Of a stretch of DNA of 64,000 bases, positions 12,999-35,292 are shown one piece after another (the first letter of the stretch is position 1; the number at the start of each line of letters is the position of its first letter). The stretch is from Acidobacteriota bacterium. Lineage in GTDB: Bacteria > Acidobacteriota > UBA6911 > JACQSX01. The notes below the pieces were generated by a model. The model searched no databases and was not told the DNA's origin. It worked only from the letters and a program-made list of their open reading frames with translations. The translations under genes and the position numbers were made by a program. The stretch covers positions 1,818-65,817 of the forward strand of contig DASXQR010000163.1 in NCBI GenBank assembly GCA_036507075.1, given 5' to 3'.

Positions 12999-15869
12999 TC
13001 AGAACGTGATGCGCACACCCAACTGAATCTGCCGCGGATCCGCGGCCGCGGTCGGCCGGCCGAAGGCAGCCAGCGGAGTCGCGCCCGTGCCGAAAGTGGT
13101 GTTGGGGAACTGAAAGTTCGTGCGGTTCAGCGTGTTAAAACTTTCCGCCAATATTTCCATCCGCAGCTGTTCGGTCAGAGAAAGCTTTCGACTCAAACGG
13201 AGATCCAGGGACGCAAAATTGAATCCTGCACCCGTGTTCCGTCCCGCACCTGCCGGGCGCGCGGCGGTTGTCTGGATAGTTTGCCCTCCGGTCACAATGT
13301 TAAACGGATACGGAGAACTGTAAGTAAGAATCCCGCTCAACTGGAATCCCTCCACGGCCCTCAACAACAAACTGCCGGACTTCAGGCTGGGCACGTTCAT
13401 TTGCCCGCTGAGAGTAAGACGGTGTCTCTGGTCGTTGTCGGAAAGACCGCGGTCGTCCCGGATGTTGAAATTGTTCTGGGGCGAGCTGAAGAAAAAGTTA
13501 CCGGTATTGTCACTGGCCCTGGAAAGTGTGTAAGAAAAACGGGCCGCTGCCCAGCTCGAAGGGCGATGCTGGAATGACGCGAACATGCCGCTGTAATAGG
13601 AGTCGCCCTGGCCGCTGTACTGCGTGATGTTTCCAAAGTTGGGATTGGGACGGCCGAGATTGACGGGATCCTGCCCGGCACTCAAAGTGGGCGTGTTCAG
13701 GTTGCGCTGCATAATGATGTGAACCCCGCGAAGATGGATATAGCCCAGTGACGCGGAGGTGCCGCGCGTAAGCTCGCGTTCGATTTGAAGGTTGGCCTGC
13801 AGACCATAGGCGTTCTTGATATTAGGATCGATAGTGGCAAGGTTAAACAGTATGCCCGCTGGAAGCGAAGCGAGTTTGTGCGGAAACACCGGGGCTCCGA
13901 CCTGAGTCCGCTGAAGGCTCACCGTCTTGTAGTCCCTGCCTGCGCCCCGCAGCGCATTGGCAACAGCCCGCAGTGGAATCCGGTCGTAGTACTGGCCAAA
14001 TCCCGCCCGAATGACGGTTTTGCGATCCCCGGGCGCGTACGCCAGGCCGATCCGGGGGCTGAAGTTATGGCTGCTGGTTTGTATCTGAGCCGCCAGCCAC
14101 TGGACATCGTAACGAAGGCCGGCATTGACAGTGAGATCATTGCGAGGCCTCCATTCATTCTGGATAAACCATCCAAGGTTCGGATTGGTCTGAAACCAGT
14201 CCACTTTTCCGAAGGCTTGCCCGAAGGTGCTGTAGTTCCCGGTCAGGAAGTCAGCCAGCCTGGCGAAACTATAGGTTCCATAAAGGGACCCCGGAAAGGC
14301 GATCAGGACACGGTTGTAAAGAAAATCTACTCCCCCCTTCAGGAAATTCGAGCCCTTTTGCGTCGAATAGTTGTTCGCGATCTCGTAAAGGTCGATGTCG
14401 CGCGCCGTCGGAGAGCTTGTGGACGCACCCAGGTTGGCCACTCCTGAAATACTGACGGCTGGACCCACAAGGTCATTGCCCGGCGCGGTAAACCGGCTGC
14501 GGGTGAATTGAAAGCGTGCTTCGTTGACCGAGTTTGGCGAAAGAGTGACCATGTCGTTCAGCGCAAACGTCTGATCGCGGTCTTCTACGCTGGTGCCGCG
14601 GCTTATTGTGCTCAGGCTGCCCACGCCGCGGGCATTAGGGCTGGAAATATCATAGAGGCTGTAGCGGAGGGCCATGCGGTTCCTTTCACTCAGACTGTAG
14701 TCGACCTTGCCGAAGAAACTTGTCCGAACATCCCCGGTAGGGTATTCGCCGGTTACGACCCGGGGCGGCGTGTAGCCCACCCGATCCAGGACCGCGTTGA
14801 TGGCGGCCACGTTGGCCGGCGAAATCGTGATGAAACCGGAGCGATGCAAACGCTCCTGCTCGAAGTTGGAGAACAGGAACGCCCGGTCCCGCCGCAGCGG
14901 GCCGCCGATGCTCAGGCCATACTGCGTCTGCGTGAACGGGCTCCGTATCCTCTTCTTTGCTATCGGATCGACGGCGGCAAAGACGTTGGTTGCGTCGAAG
15001 CGCTGGTTTCTCAAAAATCCGTAGACATTGCCGCGCACATCGTTCGAGCCGGATTGAGTCAGGATGTTAACGGTGCCGCTGGATGCCCGGCCGAATTCCG
15101 CAATGCCCCCGGAAGACACAACCTGAAACTCTCGAATGACCTCCGGGCTGAAGAACGTGACCGCCAGGTCTGCAGCGTCGTCATTGGCCGACAGGCCATC
15201 GACAACAAATCCGTTGTTCAGATTTCGCTGGCCGGTTACCGAGATCCCGGTGCCCGGCACGGCGGAAGTCTCGGCAAAACGTTCATTATTGCCGGTATTG
15301 GTGCGGCTGACCGCGGGAAGCAGCAGCGCCAGATCAAGATAATTGCGTCCGTTCAGGGGGAGATTGTTCACTTCTCTGGGAGCTACCGTCTCGGCGAGTT
15401 GGGTACGGGCGGTTTCCACGCTTGAAACCTCGCCGCTTACTCTTACGGTTTCTGCTAAACCAGCCACCACCAGTTTCACAGGCAGATCCAGCACCTGGCC
15501 AAGAGATAGTGTGAGTTCGCGCTCAAAGTTCTCAAAACCAGGTCGCTCCACTTTGAGACGGTAGCTGCCAACAGCGAGGTACAGGAAGCGATACCTTCCC
15601 TGAGGGTCGCTGATTGTCGTCCATACCTGGTTTCTGTCAAGGTTGTTGACCTTGACTTCGACGCCGCCCACCAAAGCGCCCGAGCTATCCTCGATGTGGC
15701 CGCTCAGCGTGGCCGACGTAACTGCCTGCTGAGCCTGCAACGAAGGAATCAATGCCCCCCCTGATAGCAGAAGAACGACTAGCATCCGGCAAATGACCGG
15801 CCATCGGTAAGTCTTCCGTGTGTAAGTGTGCATCCGATACATCTGATCTTCCTCAAAGTTGCCTGTCAC
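12999..15869 (-). CDS. TonB-dependent receptor, Oar-like, with N-terminal carboxypeptidase-regulatory-like domain
   Basis: Signal peptide, TLSGHIEDSSG domain, LPLNGRNYLDL plug motif, NAGLRYD, FSPRIGLAY, and terminal RQIQLGVRITF. Confidence 0.92.
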   Translation of the reverse strand: MTGNFEEDQMYRMHTYTRKTYRWPVICRMLVVLLLSGGALIPSLQAQQAVTSATLSGHIEDSSGALVGGVEVKVNNLDRNQVWTTISDPQGRYRFLYLAVGSYRLKVERPGFENFERELTLSLGQVLDLPVKLVVAGLAETVRVSGEVSSVETARTQLAETVAPREVNNLPLNGRNYLDLALLLPAVSRTNTGNNERFAETSAVPGTGISVTGQRNLNNGFVVDGLSANDDAADLAVTFFSPEVIREFQVVSSGGIAEFGRASSGTVNILTQSGSNDVRGNVYGFLRNQRFDATNVFAAVDPIAKKRIRSPFTQTQYGLSIGGPLRRDRAFLFSNFEQERLHRSGFITISPANVAAINAVLDRVGYTPPRVVTGEYPTGDVRTSFFGKVDYSLSERNRMALRYSLYDISSPNARGVGSLSTISRGTSVEDRDQTFALNDMVTLSPNSVNEARFQFTRSRFTAPGNDLVGPAVSISGVANLGASTSSPTARDIDLYEIANNYSTQKGSNFLKGGVDFLYNRVLIAFPGSLYGTYSFARLADFLTGNYSTFGQAFGKVDWFQTNPNLGWFIQNEWRPRNDLTVNAGLRYDVQWLAAQIQTSSHNFSPRIGLAYAPGDRKTVIRAGFGQYYDRIPLRAVANALRGAGRDYKTVSLQRTQVGAPVFPHKLASLPAGILFNLATIDPNIKNAYGLQANLQIERELTRGTSASLGYIHLRGVHIIMQRNLNTPTLSAGQDPVNLGRPNPNFGNITQYSGQGDSYYSGMFASFQHRPSSWAAARFSYTLSRASDNTGNFFFSSPQNNFNIRDDRGLSDNDQRHRLTLSGQMNVPSLKSGSLLLRAVEGFQLSGILTYSSPYPFNIVTGGQTIQTTAARPAGAGRNTGAGFNFASLDLRLSRKLSLTEQLRMEILAESFNTLNRTNFQFPNTTFGTGATPLAAFGRPTAAADPRQIQLGVRITF

Positions 15870-15906
15870 TTAACCTCAATCGCATTCACCGCCGCATTCA
15901 CCGCGG

Positions 15907-16154
15907 GGCCGCAGACAAAGAAAAAAAGCCGAGGACGCCCACGAGGACGCCCACGAGGACGTGCACGTCAACGATAGACGCCAACGATCACGTCCACGCT
16001 CACGAAGGAAAAAATCGCAGTTTGGAACGCATCGTGTCAATGTTGACCAAAATGATTAGGCTCTAAATTTGTCACCTAAGCATTTGGACGTGAGTCGTGG
16101 ACATTGACGTGCACGTGGTTCGTAGACGATAAACGTCGACGTTGACGTGATCGG
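15907..16154. mobile_element. Miniature element copy A: CACGTC-rich termini around a four-helix-bundle gene remnant
   Basis: Collinear with 22381-22650 in opposite orientation. The internal reading is ...LERIVSMLTKMIRL-stop. Confidence 0.6.
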
Positions 16155-16188
16155 CCTTGTTCCAACCGAAGTGTCTATTAGGAGGAAA

Positions 16189-16680
16189 TCAGGCTTGAGG
16201 AGGGTGAAACAACGGTGCGAGGTGGCCTTCCAGCACTTCGACGCGGTCGGGCGCCAAGGCGTCCTGTGGGACAGTTGTTACGATCCAGTGAACAAGACCC
16301 CTCACGACAAAGGGGTGCGCATCCGGCATTGTTCTCTGGTCATCGGATTGGCAGGCGGCCTTGATAGCGCAACCGGCACTCATGGAATGGGCACACTCTG
16401 ACTGATGACCCATTTCATGATGAACTGAAGCATTCGGACTACCGTGACAAGATTCTTTTATTAACCCGCCGGCATTCTTCATCCACACTTCTGCGGCGCA
16501 CATCAGCGGGCAACTGCATGAAGCGCCATGCATGGAGCATTCAATCCCTTCGGATACGCTGGCCACCAAGAAGTGATTGAGCGGAAGACACAGCACCGCC
16601 AGCAGCAAAACCGAAAACCGGTGTCGGGTTAATGCATTTCTCACTGCGATGATTGTAATTTCGGCAACGCAGTCATACAA
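16189..16680 (-). CDS. Cys/His-rich hypothetical protein upstream of the TonB receptor (DUF2946-like)
   Basis: N-terminal TM/signal segment, CSMHGASCSCPLMC and HHEMGHQSECAHSM clusters, C-terminal LFHPPQA. Confidence 0.6.
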   Translation of the reverse strand: MYDCVAEITIIAVRNALTRHRFSVLLLAVLCLPLNHFLVASVSEGIECSMHGASCSCPLMCAAEVWMKNAGGLIKESCHGSPNASVHHEMGHQSECAHSMSAGCAIKAACQSDDQRTMPDAHPFVVRGLVHWIVTTVPQDALAPDRVEVLEGHLAPLFHPPQA

Positions 16681-16769
16681 CGGGAAATTTTCGGGGTTTT
16701 GTATCTTGGTCCAAAAATTTGAATCACCAAGGCACCAAGCCAGAACTGAGCTTCAGCGCTTAAAAACTA

Positions 16770-16919
16770 CACCACAAAGACACGAAGGACACGAAGGGAA
16801 GACGTGGGGCAGGCAGAGGCCGGTCAGCTTCATAAACCTTTGCCGCGTTCACCTTTGGACAGGTGACCGGCCTCTGCCTTCCCCACGTCTTGCTTCGTGC
16901 TCTTTGTGTCTTTGTGGTG
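16770..16919. repeat. About 60-bp inverted repeat of the CACCACAAAGACAC family
   Basis: Arms about 16770-16826 and 16863-16919 are complementary. Family members occur at 27184-27252 and about 42375-42440. Confidence 0.8.
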
Positions 16920-16937
16920 AAAAGTTCTGGCGGATTC

Positions 16938-19538
16938 TCAGTGGATCTTCGTCCGATCGCGGCCGGCTTTTTCATCCAGCAGCGGAGCCTCACCACCGGA
17001 TGAGGAGAGCGCTCTGGTTTGGCGGTTGAGAAAAACTCCGGAACTTTCCGCGGTCGTATGCGCTTCAGTTGAGTCATCCAGAACACTTCGGACTTTTTGT
17101 GCCAGCCTTTCGGGAGTGTAAGGCTTCTGTAGAAACGGGGAGTCGGAAGTAACCATGCCGGCCTGGTCTATATATCCCTTGGCGTACCCGGAAACATACA
17201 GCACCCTGGTCTTGGGACGAGTGGCCCGGATGCACTTTGCCAATTGCTGCCCGGACATGCCGGGCATTACGACATCGGTGAGCAGCAGCGCAATGGGAGC
17301 GCGGTAATTCTCGGCTAATGCCAGTGCGGAGTCGCCATCGGGCGCCTCCAGCACTCCGTATCCCTCTCTTTGAAGGATCTTGGCCGCCAGCGTCCGGACA
17401 GAGTCTTCATCCTCGACGAGAAGAATCGTTTCCGATCCGCGGAAGCTGCTGCAGGCTTCCAATCCTGAAATCTCGATGGACGACTCGTGTTGCGGCGCCG
17501 CAGGAAAGTAGATTTCAATTTTTGTGCCGGCTCCGGCTTCGGTTTCCACCGTGATGTAGCCGTTGTTCTGTTTGACGATGCCATAGACGGTCGAAAGTCC
17601 CAGCCCGCTTCCCTTGCCCCTTTCCTTGGTGGTAAAAAAAGGTTCGAACATCTTCCGTCTCGTGTTCTGATCCATACCGATTCCGCCGTCTCGGACCGTG
17701 AGCCTGGTGTAACGGCCCGGTCGGCTCAGCGCGCTCTGGTTTTCGGGATCGACCTGCACATAGCTGTTCGATGTTTGAATCAGAAGGTTGCCTCCGTCCG
17801 GCATCGCATCACGCGAATTCACCACCAGATTCAGCAAAACCTGCTCCACTTGCCCGCGGTCGACTTTGACACACTCCAGGGCGGGTTCCAATTGAATCAT
17901 CAGCCTGACGTCCTCGCCGATGGTGCGTCGCAGAATGCGTTCCATTTCCGCGATGATCGTATTCAGATTCAGCACCTGAGGGACGATGATTTGCCGGCGG
18001 CTGAAGGCAAGGAGCTGTGATGTTAAAGCTGCGGCTGTGGATGCAGCCTTGTTTATTTCCCTTATATCTTCGAGATGGGATTCGGAAAGATCCGAATCCT
18101 TGGAAAGCATTTCGCCGATTCCCAGTATCACGGTCAGCAGGTTATTGAAATCATGCGCGATTCCCCCCGCCAGCCTTCCAACAGCCTCCAGCCGGTGCGC
18201 CTGCCGGAGCTGCTCTTCCATCTTCTTGCGATCCGTTACGTCTTCGACCAGCACCAGCACCTCCGGTTTGCCCCCGAAGTCCATTGGCTGAGCCGTGACT
18301 TCAACATCGATGAAGCTGCCATCCTTTCTTCTGTGCCTGCTCACGCCGCTCAGGGCGGGGTGTGCATCGAGGGTCGGCCCAAGAGGCGGTGTGGAGGATG
18401 CTTCTTCAGGCGCCTGGATATCGTCCACTGTCATTGAGAGAAACTCTTTTTCCGAATAGCCATAGCGCGAAAGAGCAGCCGGATTCACAGCCAGGAAAGT
18501 CAGACTGTCGCGATTGCATACCCACATGGGATGCGGATTCCGCTCGAACAGACGGCGATATCGCTCCTCGGAGCTTCTGTGCAATTCTTCGGATATCCTC
18601 AGGTTCTCGGCCACAGCGCTCAGCTCCAGCGCGTGCTGCTCGGCTGACCGGCGCCGCATCCAGAAATAAATGAGCAGTCCCGGAAACGCCAGAACCAAAA
18701 CCGTGAGCGCGATCGTGAGCGCGATCTCTCGATAAGGGGGGGCAGGGGCAAAATGGAAGTCACCGGCCGTCCGGGGCAGGAGGCGATAACCGGAATTGTA
18801 AGGCGCCGTTGTCTGATACTGTTCCAGGTTCCCGATCAGTTCAAGCCTGCCGCCCTTGAGGACGCGCTCGGTGAGTTCGGCATTTCTGCGAAGTCCGTTT
18901 GAAAGGTAAACGCGGATCTCGCCGGTGTTGTCACGAATGCGCACGTTACTGAGGTTTTCCAGAAAGTTCGCCGGTACGATCAACTCTCCGGTTACTCGAA
19001 CCAGTTGGCTCAGGTGCTTCTTGCCGAGCAGCTCGGAAACAGAAACATTGTGGATCTGAGGCACGCCGTTTCCCAGCCGTTCCAGCGTCTCGATGCGCAG
19101 TTGCTCCATTCCATTGTACTGTTCGAGCCTCCCGCCGGCGCGCACCCGATCGCCGATGGTCATGCGGCTCAGCAAAGTGCGGTCGGAGCTGACCAGACGC
19201 AGGGCTCCACTGTCATCCTGCAGATGGATCCGAACGTCTGCGTTATCCCGGGCCGGGTAGGGATCGCAGCTAAGAACTCCAGCCACGGTGAGCTGGCGGC
19301 CGAGAAGGTCAGGAATTCCATCACTGTTGCTGTCACGGAGGGCCTGCCGGGCGGGGGTTGGAAGATCTTCTGCTGCCCGGGTCGTTCTGGAATCTACACA
19401 CAGCGCAAGGATGGAGGAAAGAATGCAGATCGCGCGTTTCTGGAGAAGGCGACGTCGTACACAACCGCCGGCAGCCTGCACGCCCTCATTTAGCGCGCAG
19501 AATCTTTTCCGGCTGACTCTTCTAGAGGAGAGCCTCAT
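16938..19538 (-). CDS. Hybrid histidine kinase: extracytoplasmic tandem OB-fold-like domain, TM, PAS, HisKA, HATPase, REC
   Basis: AGGIAHDFNNLL H-box, NLVVNSRDAM, GSGLGLS, and REC with LLTDVVMP. The N-terminal region has IHLQDDSG / GDRVRAGGRLEQYNG and YRLLPRTAGD motifs. Start codon uncertain. Confidence 0.88.
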   Translation of the reverse strand: MRLSSRRVSRKRFCALNEGVQAAGGCVRRRLLQKRAICILSSILALCVDSRTTRAAEDLPTPARQALRDSNSDGIPDLLGRQLTVAGVLSCDPYPARDNADVRIHLQDDSGALRLVSSDRTLLSRMTIGDRVRAGGRLEQYNGMEQLRIETLERLGNGVPQIHNVSVSELLGKKHLSQLVRVTGELIVPANFLENLSNVRIRDNTGEIRVYLSNGLRRNAELTERVLKGGRLELIGNLEQYQTTAPYNSGYRLLPRTAGDFHFAPAPPYREIALTIALTVLVLAFPGLLIYFWMRRRSAEQHALELSAVAENLRISEELHRSSEERYRRLFERNPHPMWVCNRDSLTFLAVNPAALSRYGYSEKEFLSMTVDDIQAPEEASSTPPLGPTLDAHPALSGVSRHRRKDGSFIDVEVTAQPMDFGGKPEVLVLVEDVTDRKKMEEQLRQAHRLEAVGRLAGGIAHDFNNLLTVILGIGEMLSKDSDLSESHLEDIREINKAASTAAALTSQLLAFSRRQIIVPQVLNLNTIIAEMERILRRTIGEDVRLMIQLEPALECVKVDRGQVEQVLLNLVVNSRDAMPDGGNLLIQTSNSYVQVDPENQSALSRPGRYTRLTVRDGGIGMDQNTRRKMFEPFFTTKERGKGSGLGLSTVYGIVKQNNGYITVETEAGAGTKIEIYFPAAPQHESSIEISGLEACSSFRGSETILLVEDEDSVRTLAAKILQREGYGVLEAPDGDSALALAENYRAPIALLLTDVVMPGMSGQQLAKCIRATRPKTRVLYVSGYAKGYIDQAGMVTSDSPFLQKPYTPERLAQKVRSVLDDSTEAHTTAESSGVFLNRQTRALSSSGGEAPLLDEKAGRDRTKIH

Positions 19539-19764
19539 CGGTTCTTCTTTATCAATTCTTCACTGAATGGAACCTGCAAGAGAGATGAAATCGAGTTGCC
19601 CCTCCGGCAGGGACGTTTCTCAAGGCAATATTTGTGCCACAGATTTGACAATAGATGAACGTTCCTGAAAACGTCGACGGCTCTTGAGCTTGGATGCTGG
19701 TGTGGTCTTCTGCGGGACTACCCGCGCACGTCACGATCTTGACGGTTACGTTTGATTTTTGACG

Positions 19765-21279
19765 CTATTCTGCATCCAACACGGGCTTCAATATGACAAT
19801 GTCCTTGAGCCTGCGCTCCTCGTTGACCGCGGGGAAGGAGTAGAGATCCAGCATGGGACGCACCTCGCGGTCCCCTGCCACGGCGGCAAGGCGCATTTCC
19901 TTCTGTGGTATTTGCGACCAGAATTTTTCAGTGGGAGTGCTTCGAATCGTCACGCCCCAAACCCTGCGGCTGCTGCCGCTTTCATAAAGCGCCAGATTGG
20001 CGTGGAAGGTTGCGGGCCAGACTTTCCAGTAATCGCCCACAATGTGAGTTGCTCCCGACTGGAGAATCTCACTTGTATATTTACCTGTTGTCTTGTCGAT
20101 GTCGGCCCGCACTCTTACCAGCGACGGCCGGCCGTACAAACATGCGGGAGCGCTCAGAAACAGGGAAATGCCGGTCGCTGTGAGAATGCGCCGACCGCCG
20201 CGGCCGAAGCGAGCATAAACAGGCAGCACAGCCCAGATGACTGCGCCAAGCTGAAGCAGTACCATCGATTGCAGTGAGAATCTGGCGTCAAAGGAGCTGT
20301 TCTCGGTGTGCGCAAGTCCGCCCATCAACAAGAAGCTGACCAGCGAGGATGCTATCAGGTTCAATGCAGGAGCATTCGCGGCACGGGCGCTTCCAGGCGA
20401 CAGAAGGCGAAAAAATATTCCCAATACGAGCAGCGACGCGACGGCTATTCCCCACGGCCCGATCAGGTATTCGGACAAAACGATTTTCCCAAACTGGAAC
20501 CAGACGGCGGGCAACCTCCACGGGCGAACGGGAGGATACGGCCAGTCACCGTAGGCGGCCGAGTAGGAAACGATTCCGCAGTAAGCATAGTTGGCCAAAA
20601 AGCTGAAGATCATCAGCGCCAGAGCAATCCCTCCCTGAAACTTGCGGCGGTCAAAAAACCAGCGGAAAACAATCAGCGGCAGAAGCACAAAAATCAGAGC
20701 GGTATTGACCCAGGACGCAGCAAGCAGACAGATAAGGCTTAAAATAATTCTTGGCAGCCGAGGAAACTTCGAATTCTCCAGCAGCAGGAGACCTGCCAGG
20801 CCCAGAAACATTCCCACGCCGTAAGGATGCACTCCAAGGTAATCAAAACGCGTCTGCCTGCTGTTGAACAGAAGGAAAAGAGAAGCCGAAAGAGCTCCCG
20901 TAAACAACCATGCTCGGCGGGCCACATAGCGCGCGCACAAAAAGAAGACAGCCAGGCCGCAGAAAACATTGAAAGCGGACTGTGCCAGCAGGTTTGCAAC
21001 AGGGTTCCTGAACGGGATTGCCAGCAAGGGAACGAGCATTCCCAGCCGGTCCTGCTCCCAGTAAAAGGGTGTCCAGCGATATAAGCTCACCAGCACCGGG
21101 ACTATCGAATCGGCGTCGTGGAGGCGATGAAATGCTCCAAAATCAATCCATAACGCCGCCAGAACAGCCGCTGTCCAAAAGATAACAGTCTGGTAGCGCT
21201 GATTATCCTGCCATGTGTTCTTCTTGTTCAGAGCCGGCACCGGCATGCTATTGGTCGATACAGCGTCAGAGGAAATCAC
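19765..21279 (-). CDS. Polytopic membrane protein of unknown function (possibly GT-C-like)
   Basis: About 11 hydrophobic segments, acidic HDADS loop after TM1, and a soluble C-terminal domain. Confidence 0.7.
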   Translation of the reverse strand: MISSDAVSTNSMPVPALNKKNTWQDNQRYQTVIFWTAAVLAALWIDFGAFHRLHDADSIVPVLVSLYRWTPFYWEQDRLGMLVPLLAIPFRNPVANLLAQSAFNVFCGLAVFFLCARYVARRAWLFTGALSASLFLLFNSRQTRFDYLGVHPYGVGMFLGLAGLLLLENSKFPRLPRIILSLICLLAASWVNTALIFVLLPLIVFRWFFDRRKFQGGIALALMIFSFLANYAYCGIVSYSAAYGDWPYPPVRPWRLPAVWFQFGKIVLSEYLIGPWGIAVASLLVLGIFFRLLSPGSARAANAPALNLIASSLVSFLLMGGLAHTENSSFDARFSLQSMVLLQLGAVIWAVLPVYARFGRGGRRILTATGISLFLSAPACLYGRPSLVRVRADIDKTTGKYTSEILQSGATHIVGDYWKVWPATFHANLALYESGSSRRVWGVTIRSTPTEKFWSQIPQKEMRLAAVAGDREVRPMLDLYSFPAVNEERRLKDIVILKPVLDAE

Positions 21280-21390
21280 TTGTCAAATGTGGATTTTACA
21301 TTACGATTTTACAAAGGCCCCGATCTGATGCACGATGACGTGAAGCTTATTACAAGCTGCCGGTAACTGCGCAAAGCCCGGGAAAATTCG

Positions 21391-22332
21391 ATGCGAATCT
21401 GCTCATTGCTGCCGAGTGCCACGGAAATCCTGTTTGCACTCGGATGCGGCGATCTCCTTGTTGCCGTCACGCACGAATGCGATTATCCTGCCGGGGCCTG
21501 CCGGCTACCTAAGGTGACGCGCAGCAATATTCCGGCTGGCATCTCCAGCGACCAGATCGATTCGGCCGTGACGTCGAGTCTCCAGACATCCGGTTCTCTT
21601 TACGAGCTCGATCTTCCGCTGCTTGAACACCTGCAGCCCGATCTGATCATCACGCAGAGGTTGTGTGACGTTTGCGCCATTTCGTCTGATCGCGTGGAAC
21701 AGGCCGTAAGCGACTTGAAATCTCAACCTGAAGTTTTGAACCTGGAACCGCATTCGCTTGAAGACATCCTGCGCAGCATTCGCACCGTTGCAGACGAAAT
21801 CGGCCGGCCCCACGCAGCCGATCATCTGATTGAATCGCTGCAGCGCCGCATCGAGGCTGTCTGGCAGACCAGCAGCGATCTGACGAACAGGCCGCGCGTG
21901 TTCTGCATGGAATGGGTGAGCCCGCCCTTTTGCGGTGGGCACTGGATGAAAGAGCTGGTTGAGATTGCCGGAGGCGTGGATGACCTGTCAAATCTCCATC
22001 AGCCCTCTCGTCGGATCGAATGGACCGAGGTTCTCCGTTTTGCTCCGGAAGTGATCGTCCTTACCTGCTGCGGGTTCAACCTTGGCCGTTGCGTGGAGGA
22101 AGGCCTTAGTCTCAGCCGGCTGGACCACTTTTTTGAAATGCCTGCCGCCAAGTCCGGACGTGTGTTTGCCACCGATGGATCGGCATACTTCAGCCGGCCA
22201 GGGCCACGGATAGTAGACAGCCTCGAGATCCTCGCCTACCTCATCCATCCGGAAGTTTTTCGTGCGCCTCCGCTGTCGGAGGCCTTCTGCGTCCTGCATC
22301 CGTCGCCAGCAGAAAAAATAGGACCCAATTAA
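21391..22332 (+). CDS. BtuF-like cobalamin/Fe-siderophore periplasmic binding family protein
   Basis: RICSLLPSATEILFALG, THECDYP, PDLIITQ and YFSRPGPRIVD motifs. No obvious signal peptide. Confidence 0.85.
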   Translation: MRICSLLPSATEILFALGCGDLLVAVTHECDYPAGACRLPKVTRSNIPAGISSDQIDSAVTSSLQTSGSLYELDLPLLEHLQPDLIITQRLCDVCAISSDRVEQAVSDLKSQPEVLNLEPHSLEDILRSIRTVADEIGRPHAADHLIESLQRRIEAVWQTSSDLTNRPRVFCMEWVSPPFCGGHWMKELVEIAGGVDDLSNLHQPSRRIEWTEVLRFAPEVIVLTCCGFNLGRCVEEGLSLSRLDHFFEMPAAKSGRVFATDGSAYFSRPGPRIVDSLEILAYLIHPEVFRAPPLSEAFCVLHPSPAEKIGPN

Positions 22333-22360
22333 TTGGGGTCTTAATTGGGGTCTGTCCCTA
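22321..22360. repeat. Distal copy of the RAYT-associated REP (AATTGGGGTCTGTCCC)
   Basis: The reverse complement matches GGGACAGACCCCCAATT at 34354-34370. Overlaps the upstream stop codon. Confidence 0.7.
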
Positions 22361-22380
22361 TTGACCCTCAGAAGGCAAAA

Positions 22381-22650
22381 CCGACCACGTCAACGTCGAC
22401 GTTTATCCGTCTACGGCCACGTGCAGTCAATGTCCACGGAACACGTCCAAGCTGCTTGAGAGATTTAGTGCTTTATCATCTTGGTCAACATCGACGGGGA
22501 ATGCGTTCGAGGAGTTGCCTCCTGGCATCCCTAACCGTGCTGCAGGCAAACTTGCGAGTTTTTCTTCGTTAGCGTGGAGGTGGTCGTTGACGTCTGTCGT
22601 TGACGTGCACGCGCACGTGACCGTCCTCGGCTTTTTCTTTGGTTGCGGCC
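22381..22650. mobile_element. Miniature element copy B with a longer, frameshifted four-helix-bundle remnant
   Basis: Collinear with 15907-16154. The minus strand reads RRQLLERI / SMLTKMIKH-stop in two frames. Confidence 0.6.
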
Positions 22651-22680
22651 TACGGCTGGGCTATGCCTCTGTAGTGAAGT

Positions 22681-22720
22681 CTTTTTCCCGACGGGCAGCC
22701 AAACTTGATCACTACTCAAT
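22681..22720 (+). repeat. Dispersed 40-bp motif, copy 2
   Basis: CTTTTTCCCGACGGGCAGCCAAACTTGATCACTACTCAAT; near-identical to 60402-60441. Confidence 0.7.
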
Positions 22721-22849
22721 GAGTTAGTTTGGTACTGGCCCCACACTGTGACATACTGTGCGGGTTCCCATAGTTGAGCTTGCACCCGAAACATCTACTT
22801 TTTTAGCGGCCGACGCGGGACAACTGGTCCTTACACTCAATCCCGGGAG

Positions 22850-24361
22850 ATGCCCTTGAGAGTTCACCTGATCAATCCCAGCCATGTGTCGTTTGGTGTG
22901 GCCGTTATCACCCCGAGGTGGCTCTATGTCCTGGCAGCCGCCACCCCGCTTTCGTTCGGTGATCCACTCATTGTGGATGAGACCCTTAGCCCGCTTGATC
23001 CCTCGAGCATCCAGGAAGGGGATGTGGTGGGCATCGGAATTCATACTGGAAATGCGTTGCGCGGCTATGAGGTCGGGAGAATGGCGCGCCAGAGAGGCGC
23101 GCACGTTATTTTTGGAGGGATTCATTCCACGCTCTTTCCCGAGGAGGCACTTGAACTGGGAATGGCGCACGCTGTAGTTAAGGGCGACGGTGATGTTATC
23201 TGGACGACCGTGCTTGAGGATTGTCTTGGTGGAAGGCTCAAGCCGGTTTATGAAGGCGGCAAGATCGAGGGGGGCTCTCTTCTCCCGGGACGTTGGGACC
23301 TGCTCCCGAAAGACCGATACATGTGGGCCTCGGTGCAAACGGTGCGGGGCTGCCCCAAACACTGTTCCTTCTGTTCGGTGTGGCGCACCGACGGGCAGCG
23401 TCCCCGCCAGCGGTCATCCGACGCCGTGATTGCTGAAATCGTCCAGTTGCGTCGCCAGGGGTTTCGCTTCATCGCGCTGGCGGATGACAATTTTTACCCC
23501 GTCACGCTCGAGGATTTGGCCTTGGCCTCCCGACGCGAAGACATGCAGCGCCTTGAACAATTGAACGCCATTCGCAGCGAGCGCTTTGAGCTGATGGATC
23601 GCCTTGCGCAGCTCCCCCGCGACATGGTTTTTTACACACAGATCACAATGGAAGCTGCCGAAGACACTGTTTTCCTGGATGCGATGCGCCGGGCCAACAT
23701 CAAAGGAGCGCTTGTGGGCGTTGAATCCGTCACACAGGAAGGACTACAGGCCGTCTATAAGAACTTCAACTTCGCAGGAGAGGCCCTCGTGAATCGGCTA
23801 CAGACGTTTCGGCGGCACGGGGTGCACGTGCTCGGCTCTTTCATCTTTGGCCTGCCGACCGACCGTCCTGAGACATTCAACACCACGGTTACTGTGGCGC
23901 AAGAGGCGGGCGTCACGTTCGCTCAGTTTTTGATGTTGACTCCGTTTCCGGGAACTGTGGATTTCAACCGCTGGGAAAGCGCGATGGCCGAAAACAATAC
24001 CCGCATTGACGGGATTCCGCTGACGCGGCATTGGCTCATCCCGCAGGAAAGCCGTCCCAAAGTTTATTCGCCCCACCCAAAGATGTCGGCCCGGGAAATT
24101 CAAGAGCGCACCCAGGCGGCGTGGGACCGCTTTTACAGCTTCAAGTTGATTTGGCAGCGATCAGCGTGCGTGCGCTCCCTGCGCGCGCGCCTGGCATTCG
24201 TGTTGATTTCAAAGCTCTACCGACAAATGTATGCCAACACCGGGATCGCTACCGACAGCGCGCGAGTAAACCGTTCGGCGCGCTGGGCGCGCTGGATCGC
24301 CAAACCGTGCCGACGCCTGTTCATCTCCGCGCCCATGCCGGAGCTGCAGGTGCCTGTATGA
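22850..24361 (+). CDS. B12-binding radical SAM protein
   Basis: N-terminal cobalamin-binding region (VIFGGIHSTLFPEEA), RGCPKHCSFC (CxxxCxxC), DDNF, and GVES. Confidence 0.9.
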   Translation: MPLRVHLINPSHVSFGVAVITPRWLYVLAAATPLSFGDPLIVDETLSPLDPSSIQEGDVVGIGIHTGNALRGYEVGRMARQRGAHVIFGGIHSTLFPEEALELGMAHAVVKGDGDVIWTTVLEDCLGGRLKPVYEGGKIEGGSLLPGRWDLLPKDRYMWASVQTVRGCPKHCSFCSVWRTDGQRPRQRSSDAVIAEIVQLRRQGFRFIALADDNFYPVTLEDLALASRREDMQRLEQLNAIRSERFELMDRLAQLPRDMVFYTQITMEAAEDTVFLDAMRRANIKGALVGVESVTQEGLQAVYKNFNFAGEALVNRLQTFRRHGVHVLGSFIFGLPTDRPETFNTTVTVAQEAGVTFAQFLMLTPFPGTVDFNRWESAMAENNTRIDGIPLTRHWLIPQESRPKVYSPHPKMSAREIQERTQAAWDRFYSFKLIWQRSACVRSLRARLAFVLISKLYRQMYANTGIATDSARVNRSARWARWIAKPCRRLFISAPMPELQVPV

Positions 24362-24391
24362 GCTGTGTAAGCTTGGTGTCCTTGGTGTAAC

Positions 24392-24551
24392 AAGTTGGCA
24401 ACTTCTTGTTTTTTCGACAAGATTGCAGAAAACATCCGGTCACGTCAACGTCGACGTTTATCGACTACGTGCACGTGGACCTAGAGGATAAACGTCGACG
24501 TGCTCGGATGTCTTTTGAAATCTTGTCGAAAAAGCATGAAGTTGCCAACTT
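24392..24551. repeat. 160-bp composite inverted repeat with near-palindromic AAGTTG(G/C)CAACTT ends
   Basis: The roughly 70-bp arms pair. The core contains the same CACGTCAACGTCGACGTTTATC as the miniature-element terminus. Confidence 0.8.
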
Positions 24552-24758
24552 TCGACTTTCGACCTTCGACTTGCGCCACGCAGAGAACGCTGAGTTTACG
24601 CCCAGGACACCGTCGATTAGGCGGCAACATCTCCAAAAATCCTAGCTTCAGAGTTCCATCAGATAGAGTACAATAGTGGACGCGGAGCACCGGATGCTGC
24701 CGCAATTTTCCCTGAAAAGCTGTAATTAACAACCAAGCTTCATCTACCACAACATGCT

Positions 24759-26126
24759 ATGAGCGAATCCAAACAAAATGCCTCACGTCGTGAGTTTTTG
24801 AAAAGTACCGGACGAATTGCCGCTGCCTCGGCACTGGCGGGCGCCAGCATTCCGTTTGTCCATGCGAGCCAGGACAACACCATTTCGGTGGTCCTTATCG
24901 GCTGCGGCGGCCGCGGCACAGGCGCCGTGGCCAATGCGCTATCGGTGAAGAACGGGCCCATAAGGCTGGTCGCTATGGCCGATGTTTTCGAGAGCCGTCT
25001 CAAGGGGAGCTATAGCCGCCTTAAGGAGCGGTACAGCCAGCAGGTCGACGTTCCCGAGGACCACAAGTTCATCGGTTTTGACGCCTACCAGAAAGCAATG
25101 GACTGCCTCAGGCCGGGAGATGTGGCTATTTTTGCCACACCCCCGGGCTTCCGCTGGGTCCATTTCAACTACGCCATCCAAAAGGGCCTGAATGTGTTCA
25201 TGGAAAAGCCGGTGACAGTGGACGCACCGACAACCCGCAAAATGCTCCAATTGGCTGACGAAGCGGACAAAAAGAACCTTAAGGTGGGAGTGGGTCTGAT
25301 GATTCGCCACTGCAGGGCCCGGCAGGCGCTCAAAGAGAAGATCGAGTCCGGTCAGATCGGCGACATCTTAATGATGCGGGCCTACCGGATGCACGGTCCG
25401 GCCGGCTTTGCTTTTTCCGAGCCGAAGCCTGCCGACATCAGCGAGCTGCTTTATCAGGTCCAGCGGTTCCATAGTTTTCTGTGGGCCAGCGGCGGTCTTT
25501 ACAGTGACTTCTACATCCATCAAATCGACGAATGTTGTTGGATGAAGGGCGCCTGGCCGGTTCAGGCACAGGCGCTGGGGGCACGTCACTATCGCGGAAG
25601 CGCCGTCGATCAGAACTTTGACAATTACTCGGTCGAATACACCTTTGCCGACGGTTCAAAGCTCTTTTTGGAAGGCCGGACAATGGAAGGGGCTTACACG
25701 TCATTCTCGAGCTACGTGCACGGCACCAAAGGCGTGGGCATCGTTTCCACTTCCAGTCACAGCCCCGGCAAATGCCGCACATTCAAGAATCAGACCATGG
25801 CCGATGCCGATCTGATTTGGGCCTTCCCGCAGCCCGAGCAGAACCCTTATGACCTTGAATGGGACGACCTGATTGATGCGATTCGCGGAGACAAACCCTA
25901 CAATGAAGTGAAACGCGGCGCCCAGGCAAGCCTTGTGACATCAATGGGACGAATGGCCGCGCATACGGGCCAGGTAATTACCTGGGATAAGATGGTTAAC
26001 TGCGAACACGAGTTCGCTCCCGGCGTCGATAAGCTGGCCATGAATTCCGGGGCGCCCCTGCTGCCCGGTGCCGATGGCAAATACCCGATCCCAATGCCGG
26101 GAATCATCAAGGACCGAGAATACTAA
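24759..26126 (+). CDS. Tat-exported Gfo/Idh/MocA oxidoreductase
   Basis: SRREFLK twin-arginine signal, IGCGGRG Rossmann motif, EKP motif, and HQID. Confidence 0.9.
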   Translation: MSESKQNASRREFLKSTGRIAAASALAGASIPFVHASQDNTISVVLIGCGGRGTGAVANALSVKNGPIRLVAMADVFESRLKGSYSRLKERYSQQVDVPEDHKFIGFDAYQKAMDCLRPGDVAIFATPPGFRWVHFNYAIQKGLNVFMEKPVTVDAPTTRKMLQLADEADKKNLKVGVGLMIRHCRARQALKEKIESGQIGDILMMRAYRMHGPAGFAFSEPKPADISELLYQVQRFHSFLWASGGLYSDFYIHQIDECCWMKGAWPVQAQALGARHYRGSAVDQNFDNYSVEYTFADGSKLFLEGRTMEGAYTSFSSYVHGTKGVGIVSTSSHSPGKCRTFKNQTMADADLIWAFPQPEQNPYDLEWDDLIDAIRGDKPYNEVKRGAQASLVTSMGRMAAHTGQVITWDKMVNCEHEFAPGVDKLAMNSGAPLLPGADGKYPIPMPGIIKDREY

Positions 26127-34372: not shown

Positions 34373-34608
34373 CGCCCCGATTAGATTTGCATATTAGTAA
34401 TTTGGGCTCTCTCCCTTAAATCCGAGGCCTAAATTCGAGGCCTACCCTCGTTCTTTGGGGCCTGCGCCTCATTCCTTTCCAATTTCACCTTCCTTCGAAA
34501 CATTATTTCGCAGATTTGGAAGCAAGGGAGTTATGTCCGTGGTGAGGGAGTCGGAGGTGCACTCACAGCAGTACGTGGGAGCGGCTGCAGACTTTGAGGG
34601 TCAAAACT

Positions 34609-35292
34609 ATGCCACGGAAAGCAAGAATTGTCGTACCAGGATACCCACATCACGTCACTCATCGAGGCAACCGCCGCAGCGACATCTTTCTCGACGACGA
34701 TGATCGACGGTTTTATCTTTATCTGTTGCAGAAATACACGGAACGTTACAAGGTTGACCTGTGGTCTTACTCGCTCATGACCAACCATACTCACCTTATA
34801 ACATTACCTTACAGCAAAGAATCGCTCTCGGAAGCCATGAAAAGAGCAGACGGCCGCTACGCCATGTACTTCAACGCCAAGTACGGATTTGTTGGACACC
34901 TCTGGCAAGGGCGCTTCTTCTCTTGCGCTCTCGACGACCCACATCTGCGATCGGCAGTCCGTTACGTAGAACGTAATCCAGTCAGAGCCGGGATGGTGGC
35001 TCGGGCCGAGGATTATCCTTGGTCAAGCGCCGCGGCAAACTGCGGTGTAAGGCACGATCCAGTCTTGTCCGACGGCCTGCCATTAAAGCAGATCATTCCG
35101 GATTGGGCAAAGTGGCTGGAACAGCCGACAACAGAAGAGGAGTTCGAGAGAATCCGTCGAATGACCCGGGCCGGCCGGCCGTGTGGATCGGAGCAGTTTA
35201 TCGAAGAACTGGAGAAGTTATTCGGCCTTGACTTGAGACAAAAACCAAGAGGGAAGAAAAAAAAAGAGTTCGTCAGGACAGAAGGGGTCTAA
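34609..35292 (+). mobile_element. rayT: REP-associated tyrosine transposase (RAYT, Y1/HUH)
   Basis: MPRKARIVVPGYPHHVTHRGNRR, HUH motif MTNHTH, GHLWQGRF, YVERNPVRAG and YPWSS. Flanked by REP arrays. Confidence 0.92.

Follow-up and report, generated by a model that had tools for sequence, protein, structure and literature searches.

Gene-less foldback repeats in an Acidobacteriota genome, probable descendants of a small four-helix-bundle gene cassette

We analysed a 64,000-nt stretch of DNA (hereafter, the window; C163:1818-65817) from a metagenome-assembled genome (MAG) of an Acidobacteriota bacterium (6.1 Mb in 233 contigs, 56% G+C). The window carries two copies, A and B, of a foldback repeat whose interior encodes the last codons of a four-helix-bundle gene, a gene type otherwise known from intervening sequences (IVSs) of 23S rRNA. 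Throughout, C with a number designates a contig of this genome, L with a number a metagenome or MAG locus, and G with a number another genome scanned. Copies A (15907-16165, plus strand) and B (22376-22650, minus strand) are homologous from end to end in opposite orientation and have arms rich in CACGTC/GACGTG, both as described in an earlier note on this DNA. Their inverted arms are collinear between 15923-16159 and 22376-22636, in blocks of 71 nt (85% identity), 39 nt (82%), 32 nt (91%) and 25 nt (88%). In a MAFFT global alignment that included the flanks, the two copies showed 78% column identity with a single 38-nt gap, located in copy A. A 30-nt probe for the gene remnant matched the window exactly twice, at copies A and B, versus no matches in 100 shuffles. 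Alignments of many copies place the start of copy A at ∼ 15881 and extend copy B to ∼ 22715, so that the limits given earlier were too narrow on both sides.

On the plus strand, copy A begins with a left scaffold (15881-15916) that consists of a TTCACCGC-type leader, with two copies of the 12-nt unit CGCATTCACCGC, and GGGGCCGCAGAC, as delineated by Tandem Repeats Finder (TRF) and the alignments; it is a reduced version of the family module TTCACCACAGAGGCACAGCCCGGCCGTAGGCCGCAACC. There follow an A-run (AAAGAAAAAAAG) and a left arm of roughly 6-nt NNACGN units (15917-16004), in which TRF found a 12-nt duplication private to this copy (CGAGGACGCCCA, 2.7 repeats, 15930-15961), and then the -35 half of a promoter (AAAAAATCGCAGTTTG, 16005-16024), which scores -0.7 with the position weight matrix (PWM) described below. 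The -10 half and the Shine-Dalgarno sequence have been removed by a deletion, here called type M, whose junction joins TTTG to GAACGC at 16024/16025. The reading frame LERIVSMLTKMIRL plus TAA occupies 16022-16066, as claimed earlier; the inherited open reading frame (ORF) of the four-helix-bundle gene starts at 16025 (ERIVSMLTKMIRL), and the first Leu codon, TTG (16022-16024), comes from the promoter side of the junction. The post-stop spacer, which is the apex of the foldback, spans 16067-16083, and the right arm (TTGGACGTG...GACGTGATCGG, ending at 16154) and a degenerate T-rich tail fill 16084-16175.

Copy B, read on the minus strand, has a left scaffold (CACTACAGAGGCATAGCCCAGCCGTAGGCCGCAACC) together with an outer module that it has in common with the copies on C105, C69, C167 and C60 (22643-22715), and an A-run plus left arm (22568-22642; the arm extends to 22630 and the A-run is the plus-strand T-run at 22631-22642). 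Next come a decayed 37-nt cassette promoter (AGAAAAACTCGCAAGTTTGCCTGCAGCACGGTTAGGG, 22529-22565, PWM score 14.1 bits) and the Shine-Dalgarno sequence CCAGGAGGC of the lost gene (22517-22525), which abuts a deletion junction of a second type, L, between GGC and AACTCC. The ORF remnant (QLLERI / SMLTKMIKH plus TAA, 22465-22516) represents the last 16 codons and is split by a 2-nt insertion, in keeping with the earlier description of a frameshifted interior (RRQLLERI, then SMLTKMIKH-TAA). The post-stop spacer lies at 22451-22464 and the right arm at 22381-22450. An Rfam scan of 15500-25000 found no rRNA and returned nothing at either copy.

The remnant peptide appears to belong to the four-helix-bundle family PF05635/TIGR02436, an assignment on which the C-termini of homologs and a subfamily hidden Markov model (HMM) agree. 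Many of the 1015 database homologs end in LLERIVSMLTKMIKF followed by a stop codon, and the C-termini of full-length homologs match the copy A remnant at 13 of 14 residues (LERIVSMLTKMI being identical). The subfamily HMM, built from 99 homologs with the proteins of this genome excluded, was run on the complete six-frame translation of the genome (214,444 peptides) and gave 22 matches: seven known gene loci, the same number of genes and pseudogenes as found by a PF05635 search of the genome, one weak stray (E = 5.3) and 14 matches to the C-terminus only. All 14 lie inside copies of the repeat, copy A included, and end at model position 112 of 113, where a stop codon follows; their genome-wide E-values range from 0.002 to 3, and apart from the genuine genes nothing in the genome gave comparable matches. 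Copy B is absent from the HMM matches solely owing to its frameshift. The short peptides of the copies taken by themselves (23-26 aa) matched no NCBIfam or curated HMM. The similarity that the earlier note had proposed was thus found with the subfamily HMM and in the C-termini of homologs.

Full-length four-helix-bundle genes with the same flanks are present on C37 (4143-4481) and at three metagenome or MAG loci, L010, L011 and L203, whose proteins are 77%, 75% and 65% identical, respectively, to that of C37. The 113-aa C37 protein scores 67.7 bits against PF05635 (cut-off 33.8) and 64.4 bits against TIGR02436 (cut-off 24) and, by sequence only, is linked to the structure 2GSC (XCC0516, a pentameric four-helix bundle; E = 4.3e-9). 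It ends in LLVRIVSMLSKMMKF and a stop codon, and its gene is enclosed by a left arm, AAAGAAAAAGCCG-(NNACGN)n, and a right arm, (NCGTNN)n-CGGTTTTTG. L010, L011 and L203 each have the layout A-run, NNACGN array, promoter-like stretch, Shine-Dalgarno sequence, gene, inverted array and T-rich tail. At these four loci, as in most homologs across the phylum, the inverted repeats enclose the ORF as a stem. The parent cassette encodes no transposase; in C37, L010, L011 and L203 the 113-aa four-helix-bundle gene is the only cargo.

The anatomy of the gene-less elements was worked out from the 27 longest copies in the genome. Their common order is the scaffold TTCACCACAGAGGCACAGCCCGGCCGTAGGCCGCAACC, the A-run, the left arm of ∼ 6-nt NNACGN units and a promoter stretch ending in the Shine-Dalgarno sequence CCAGGAGGC, followed by the last codons of the ORF with its stop codon, a 14-nt spacer, the right arm and a T-rich tail. 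The earlier note had taken copies A and B for internally deleted derivatives, which proved to be the case: the promoter and Shine-Dalgarno side and the last 14-16 codons are kept, and the deletion junctions are common to dispersed copies. Eleven copies (B and those on C105, C133, C149, C60, C69, C167, C233, C120, C10 and C143) are of type L, with a common junction of GGAGGC to AACTCCTCGAACGC that fuses the Shine-Dalgarno sequence to the last 16 codons; ∼ 295 bp, including codons 1 to ∼ 97, are gone. Type L divides into subclades L1 and L2, distinct along their whole length apart from the common junction. Four copies (A, C48:53318, C148:6619 and C192:20567) are of type M, whose common junction of CGCAGTTTG to GAACGC falls inside the region kept by type L; loss of 38 bp between the microhomologies TTTG and CTTG would turn an L2-like copy into this form. 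Types S and XS are shorter still and retain only TKMFKL or MIKL before the stop codon. In one type-XS copy (C192:81790), a well-preserved promoter (35 bits) is fused to ATG ATT AAG CTC TGA, a four-codon mini-ORF (MIKL and stop). Among type-L copies, pairwise identity is 0.86 in the remnant and 0.91 in the spacer versus 0.69-0.77 in the arms. The arms vary by gain and loss of units, as in the private duplication of copy A and in the orthologous cassettes L037-L039, which differ in unit number. Since the same junctions occur at unrelated intergenic sites, the gutted element has evidently multiplied after the gene was lost.

The repeat is far more abundant than the two copies suggested earlier: a blastn search of the genome with A and B yielded 154 merged loci. 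Stricter probes for separate segments recovered ∼ 105 arm loci, of which ∼ 25 carry an ORF remnant and ∼ 80 do not. All 25 long gene-less copies examined for location lie between ORFs, tens of nucleotides from their neighbours, and none is in rRNA; the flanks and the neighbouring ORFs are different at every site, and the orientation relative to neighbouring genes is mixed. We do not propose a requirement in cis for the 3' end of the ORF, as the remnants trace back to very few deletions and ∼ 80 loci have none. Many copies are followed by the module GTCTTCTGAAATCTTGTCAAAAAAACAAGAAGTTGCCAAC, which occurs 62 times in the genome. Because this module adjoins several different arm families, the elements are mosaics.

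A third family member in the window (24365-24549, no strand assigned) is a gene-less palindrome of two right-arm halves. It begins 4 nt past the stop codon of a radical-SAM gene and is bracketed by the shared module GTTGGCAACTTCTTG-T6-CGACAAGAT.... A tandem 7-mer array (ACTTTCG, 3.6 repeats, 24548-24572) touches this element. A second, commoner family of ACGT-armed gene-less elements (81 blastn matches, e.g. C57:16455, C187:8503 and C152:27643) shares its left scaffold and right module with the present family and differs from it in the loop (...CAGTCTGTGACGAACCGAGCGAAGTCGTAAACG...). Two other repeats lie near copies A and B. Adjoining copy B is a repetitive extragenic palindromic (REP) sequence of the GGGGACAGTCCCC type (22329-22365), palindromic with the last codons and TAA of a periplasmic-binding-protein gene (GGACCCAATTAATTGGGGTC). 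A separate 150-nt foldback with arms of CACGAAG/CACAAAG units (16770-16919) directly follows a histidine-kinase gene; it has at least eight near-identical copies elsewhere in the genome, and its Rfam matches were only spurious ones to miRNA models.

Outside this genome, four-helix-bundle homologs (E ≤ 1e-10) were detected in 17 of 301 Acidobacteriota genomes, so that their distribution is sporadic, as the earlier note had it. Inverted arrays with a 6-nt period bracket most of these genes, and the inverted-repeat scores around the genes are 36-62 bits versus at most 26 bits in displaced controls. The units (AATCGT, CCCTTG/GGCAAG, CACGGG and CATGCT among them) differ among genera while the architecture stays. 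Seven copies at separate sites were counted in one genome (G247), and three genomes of one genus have an orthologous cassette in common, with unequal numbers of arm units. A degenerate codon pattern for I(V/L)SMLTKMI retrieved 48 loci in named MAGs, comprising full-length genes with 43-49% identity to C37 and 5'-truncated derivatives; since this pattern represents the 3' end of the gene, the retrieved set carries an ascertainment bias and cannot show preferential retention of that end. The sources include 'Deltaproteobacteria' MGR_bin5, 'Proteobacteria' OH_PBrB_153, Kofleriaceae, Myxococcales and another Acidobacteriota MAG.

In the Myxococcota-type MGR_bin5, ∼ 32 contigs stop inside the gene; their 3' ends (...CTCTGGGGTTAG) are identical, and the 32 flanks beyond them all differ, which looks like a recent burst. 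In 22 of 36 junctions (loci L143-L190), the TAA at the end, which reads TTA along the element, is an in-frame stop codon of an opposite-strand frame of at least 100 codons, versus eight and five junctions for the other two frames; the terminus CTCTGGGGTTAG there supplies the stop codon of the convergent neighbour. In related cassettes from Myxococcota, the end is CTAA/TTAG and often coincides with a neighbour's stop codon. The proposal that gene and repeats move as a unit thus gains indirect support from the multi-copy gene-bearing cassettes of G247 and MGR_bin5.

The cassettes are linked to other genes by a shared promoter-like motif. This 37-nt motif, noticed when the sequence upstream of the Y1 transposase genes proved to be the same as that upstream of the C37 gene, was described by a PWM made from 25 seed sites (consensus AAATtTTTTCGCAGATTT-N7-ctGGcCaGTTATGT with fixed spacing, also written TTCGCAGATTT-N12-GTTATGT; threshold at least 18 bits). 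It has 61 matches in the genome and none in the shuffled genome; examples are found at 34500-34536 in the window and at C208:30342, C111:1490, C45:16779 and C110:8681. According to Pfam, the genes directly downstream of the motif include ssb, comEA, recA, comM, comF, recQ, recG, dprA, radC and those for an ERCC4-HhH nuclease, a GspH-like pilin and a zf-HC2 anti-sigma factor; the last of these, at C17:71535, is a lead to the sigma factor or regulator of the motif. The motif also precedes 10 of the 12 Y1_Tnp genes, six of the seven four-helix-bundle genes and four PDDEXK_3 (GxxExxY) genes, the last four being bracketed by unit arrays as well. L010 and L011 have the motif equally far from the start codon, with scores of 25.3 and 11.4 bits, respectively. 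The stretch in the gutted copies that was at first taken for a 5' untranslated region is therefore best regarded as the cassette promoter. In the window, a Y1_Tnp gene of the IS200-like type encoding a REP-associated tyrosine transposase (RAYT) occupies 34606-35292 (plus strand), between GGGGACAGTCCCC(AATTAG) REP hairpins.

With up to two mismatches allowed, the motif occurs 33 times in this genome, 33 and 24 times in genomes of the sister genus and 0-3 times in most others of the class; a control with the reversed pattern gave zero matches in nearly all genomes and a single match in one. The motif is thus lineage-specific and abundant only in this Acidobacteriota family. Four four-helix-bundle genes of the sister genus are preceded by it at a distance of 45-60 nt; no match within two mismatches precedes the ssb gene there. 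In G003 and G001 of that genus, a promoter variant (TTCGCAAATTTGCCACCAGCCCGGTTGTGT) is identical at at least 12 sites and at two sites, respectively; its recurrence suggests another multi-copy promoter-carrying cassette.

Taken together, these data show that the cassettes, which have been little studied, proliferate and degenerate in the manner of mobile DNA. In our view, A and B are likely to be non-autonomous elements that descend from a small foldback cassette with a four-helix-bundle gene, which was gutted by deletion and then copied to new sites without its gene. The intact cassette would have consisted of an A-run, the left arm, promoter and Shine-Dalgarno sequence, the 113-aa gene, the right arm and a T-run. 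An internal deletion that fused the Shine-Dalgarno sequence to the last 16 codons would have produced type L (copy B), a further 38-bp deletion between the TTTG and CTTG microhomologies would have produced type M (copy A), and the gutted element would then have been copied to unrelated intergenic sites. As the four-helix-bundle protein has no recognizable catalytic motif, full and gutted cassettes alike were probably moved in trans. The route that we prefer, which is still rather doubtful, would involve a single-stranded foldback intermediate handled by hairpin-recognizing Y1 transposases of the RAYT/IS200 type that belong to the same promoter class. It is preferred because one promoter motif serves the genes for DNA uptake and recombination, most RAYT genes and the four-helix-bundle genes, which would be expected to lead to co-expression at times of plentiful single-stranded DNA. 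The four-helix-bundle protein, a putative pentamer, may bind the arm units, by analogy with its relative Avd, the accessory variability determinant of diversity-generating retroelements, which binds nucleic acid. With its A-run, stem and T-run, the base of the element could act as a terminator in both directions or as a substrate of RNase III, which would make intergenic insertion tolerable.

Several observations weigh against this scheme. The genome has a single full-length gene of the subfamily, whose C-terminus and arms differ somewhat from those of the remnants, and the assembly lacks the immediate parent of A and B. Scaffold modules are common to other arm families, so that the true mobile unit and its ends are not defined. 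Among the closest relatives, whose intergenic content differs, a search for an empty site or a target-site duplication found none: G004, G001 and G003 have only the radical-SAM gene in common with the window, with different upstream DNA and no empty site, and in L063, the closest metagenome contig (84% aa identity), the element is absent and the radical-SAM and oxidoreductase genes are separated by another gene, an arrangement that is consistent with recent insertion without being a clean empty site. Seven of the 12 Y1_Tnp genes were examined for their flanks; where the contig includes both sides, they mostly lie between inverted REPs of their own, clearly so in five cases. None is flanked by ACGT arms or adjoins a copy of the family, the nearest being 300 bp to 24 kb away. 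Judged from gene content only, the set downstream of the motif would be a competence-type regulon. The predicted folds of A and B are not more stable than those of dinucleotide shuffles (z ∼ -1); because ACGT-rich sequence self-pairs anyway, fold energy is uninformative and speaks neither for nor against a hairpin. Finally, gene conversion among existing copies, the main alternative, could account for the spread of the deletion alleles.

Some candidates were set aside. Adjacency to RAYT genes was rejected as direct evidence, the Y1 genes having REP hairpins of their own that are different. Carriage by a defence system, plasmid or phage found no backing in the searches made (no PADLOC match, four weak plasmid matches, no phage match). 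As for attC cassettes of integrons, the present copies are dispersed singletons, not arrays, with no evident attC-like core sites.

Under gene conversion, full-length cassettes would have dispersed first and a deleted variant would have overwritten them through the arms, so that gene-less copies never transposed. The arms and scaffold do offer long homology for this, and L1 and L2 have the same junction though they differ elsewhere in the element. Conversion nevertheless still needs an earlier dispersal of a gene-carrying unit, and the single full-length copy left in the genome, the ∼ 80 arm loci without any remnant and the several junction types side by side all argue against it; we regard it as unlikely. 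A different possibility is that the copies persist as host-maintained bidirectional terminators, RNA-processing sites or promoter-bearing small-RNA units, with no ongoing mobility and a resemblance to the gene cassette that is a historical accident. At its base, each copy has a GC-rich stem between an A-run and a T-run, all copies are intergenic and near gene ends, the region has more terminator-like sites than expected (25 versus 10.5), and it is the loop and remnant that are best conserved (0.86-0.91 versus 0.69-0.77 in the arms). Such upkeep by the host would, however, leave the origin of ∼ 100 copies unexplained; orientation to neighbours is mixed, sequence families vary among genera while the architecture persists, and copies break assemblies as recent repeats do. 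These features make the second alternative quite unlikely.

The remaining alternative is retro-mobility, in which an RNA of the cassette, made from its own promoter and with its stem trimmed by RNase III, would be copied by a host reverse transcriptase with the help of the Avd-like protein, and the cDNA would integrate. In its favour, the family PF05635 takes in Avd-like proteins from diversity-generating retroelements (PMC10053308), RNase III cleaves the stems of IVSs (PMC4990558), a promoter is part of the cassette, and RVT_1 gave two matches in the genome. These, however, are on C146 and C119 and the bundle genes are on other contigs, so that there is no reverse transcriptase near any of them; poly-A and template-repeat features are lacking, and the copies keep the promoter and sequence upstream of the likely transcript start, which an RNA copy would miss. 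We therefore consider retro-mobility very unlikely.

The closest known system is the 23S rRNA IVS with an S23p ORF (Ralph and McClelland 1993; PMC4990558). The likeness extends to the protein family (PF05635/TIGR02436, with 2GSC as a solved relative), the location of the ORF in the loop of a stem formed by terminal inverted repeats, the short tandem repeats beside the ORF, which vary in number among strains, and the decay of the ORF while the stem stays. Unlike the IVSs, the present copies lie outside rRNA (not in helix 25 or 45), between protein-coding genes and at ∼ 100 sites per genome, and the cassettes have long hexamer-array arms, a promoter of their own and multiplied gene-less derivatives. 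Miniature inverted-repeat transposable elements (MITEs) that arose by internal deletion of insertion sequences include Correia/NEMIS, ERIC and the IS630- or IS5-derived MITEs. Like them, the present copies are small, non-coding, multi-copy and intergenic, have inverted ends, descend by internal deletion from a longer gene-carrying element and were then amplified. Unlike in MITEs, the parent has only a 113-aa helical bundle without a transposase motif, and the ends are short-unit arrays rather than a defined terminal inverted repeat, with no target-site duplication shown. REPs, REP doublets forming hairpins (REPINs) and their RAYTs resemble the present system in comprising hairpin-forming intergenic repeats of high copy number, and RAYT and four-helix-bundle genes are under one promoter motif in this genome; in contrast to REPs of 20-40 nt, however, the present elements are 200-300 bp long, have array arms, carry gene remnants and flank no RAYT gene. 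Avd has the homologous four-helix-bundle fold and is a nucleic-acid-binding pentamer (PMC10053308), whereas the adjacent reverse transcriptase, template repeat and variable-region target gene of diversity-generating retroelements are not found here.

Full-text literature searches retrieved no paper that describes four-helix-bundle cassettes as dispersed mobile elements. As a tentative generalization, which we find possible but would not bet on, single-gene cassettes with inverted arrays of ∼ 6-nt units might form one undescribed cross-phylum class of mobile elements, whose cargo is an IVS-type four-helix bundle, a GxxExxY PD-(D/E)XK nuclease or a RAYT. The 23S IVSs would then be members that landed in rDNA and the ACGT hairpins MITE-like offspring, which in this lineage would be wired into a competence and recombination regulon (dprA, radC, comEA, comF, comM, ssb and recA), moving, or acting on incoming DNA, as single strands during uptake.

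IVSs with S23p ORFs occur in the 23S rRNA of Leptospira, Coxiella burnetii and Xanthomonas, and their origin and mobility, like the function of S23p, have been questions since the early 1990s (PMC4990558). The same gene-in-stem unit outside rRNA, with gutted copies whose deletion junctions can be dated, provides direct sequence evidence of proliferation. The link of the cassette promoter to DNA-uptake and recombination genes and to RAYT and GxxExxY genes is a new result: the common promoter points to DNA uptake and recombination as the condition of expression, and makes RAYTs and GxxExxY nucleases candidate partners. Repeats of this kind fill intergenic DNA and break the MAG assemblies of soil Acidobacteriota and Myxococcota.

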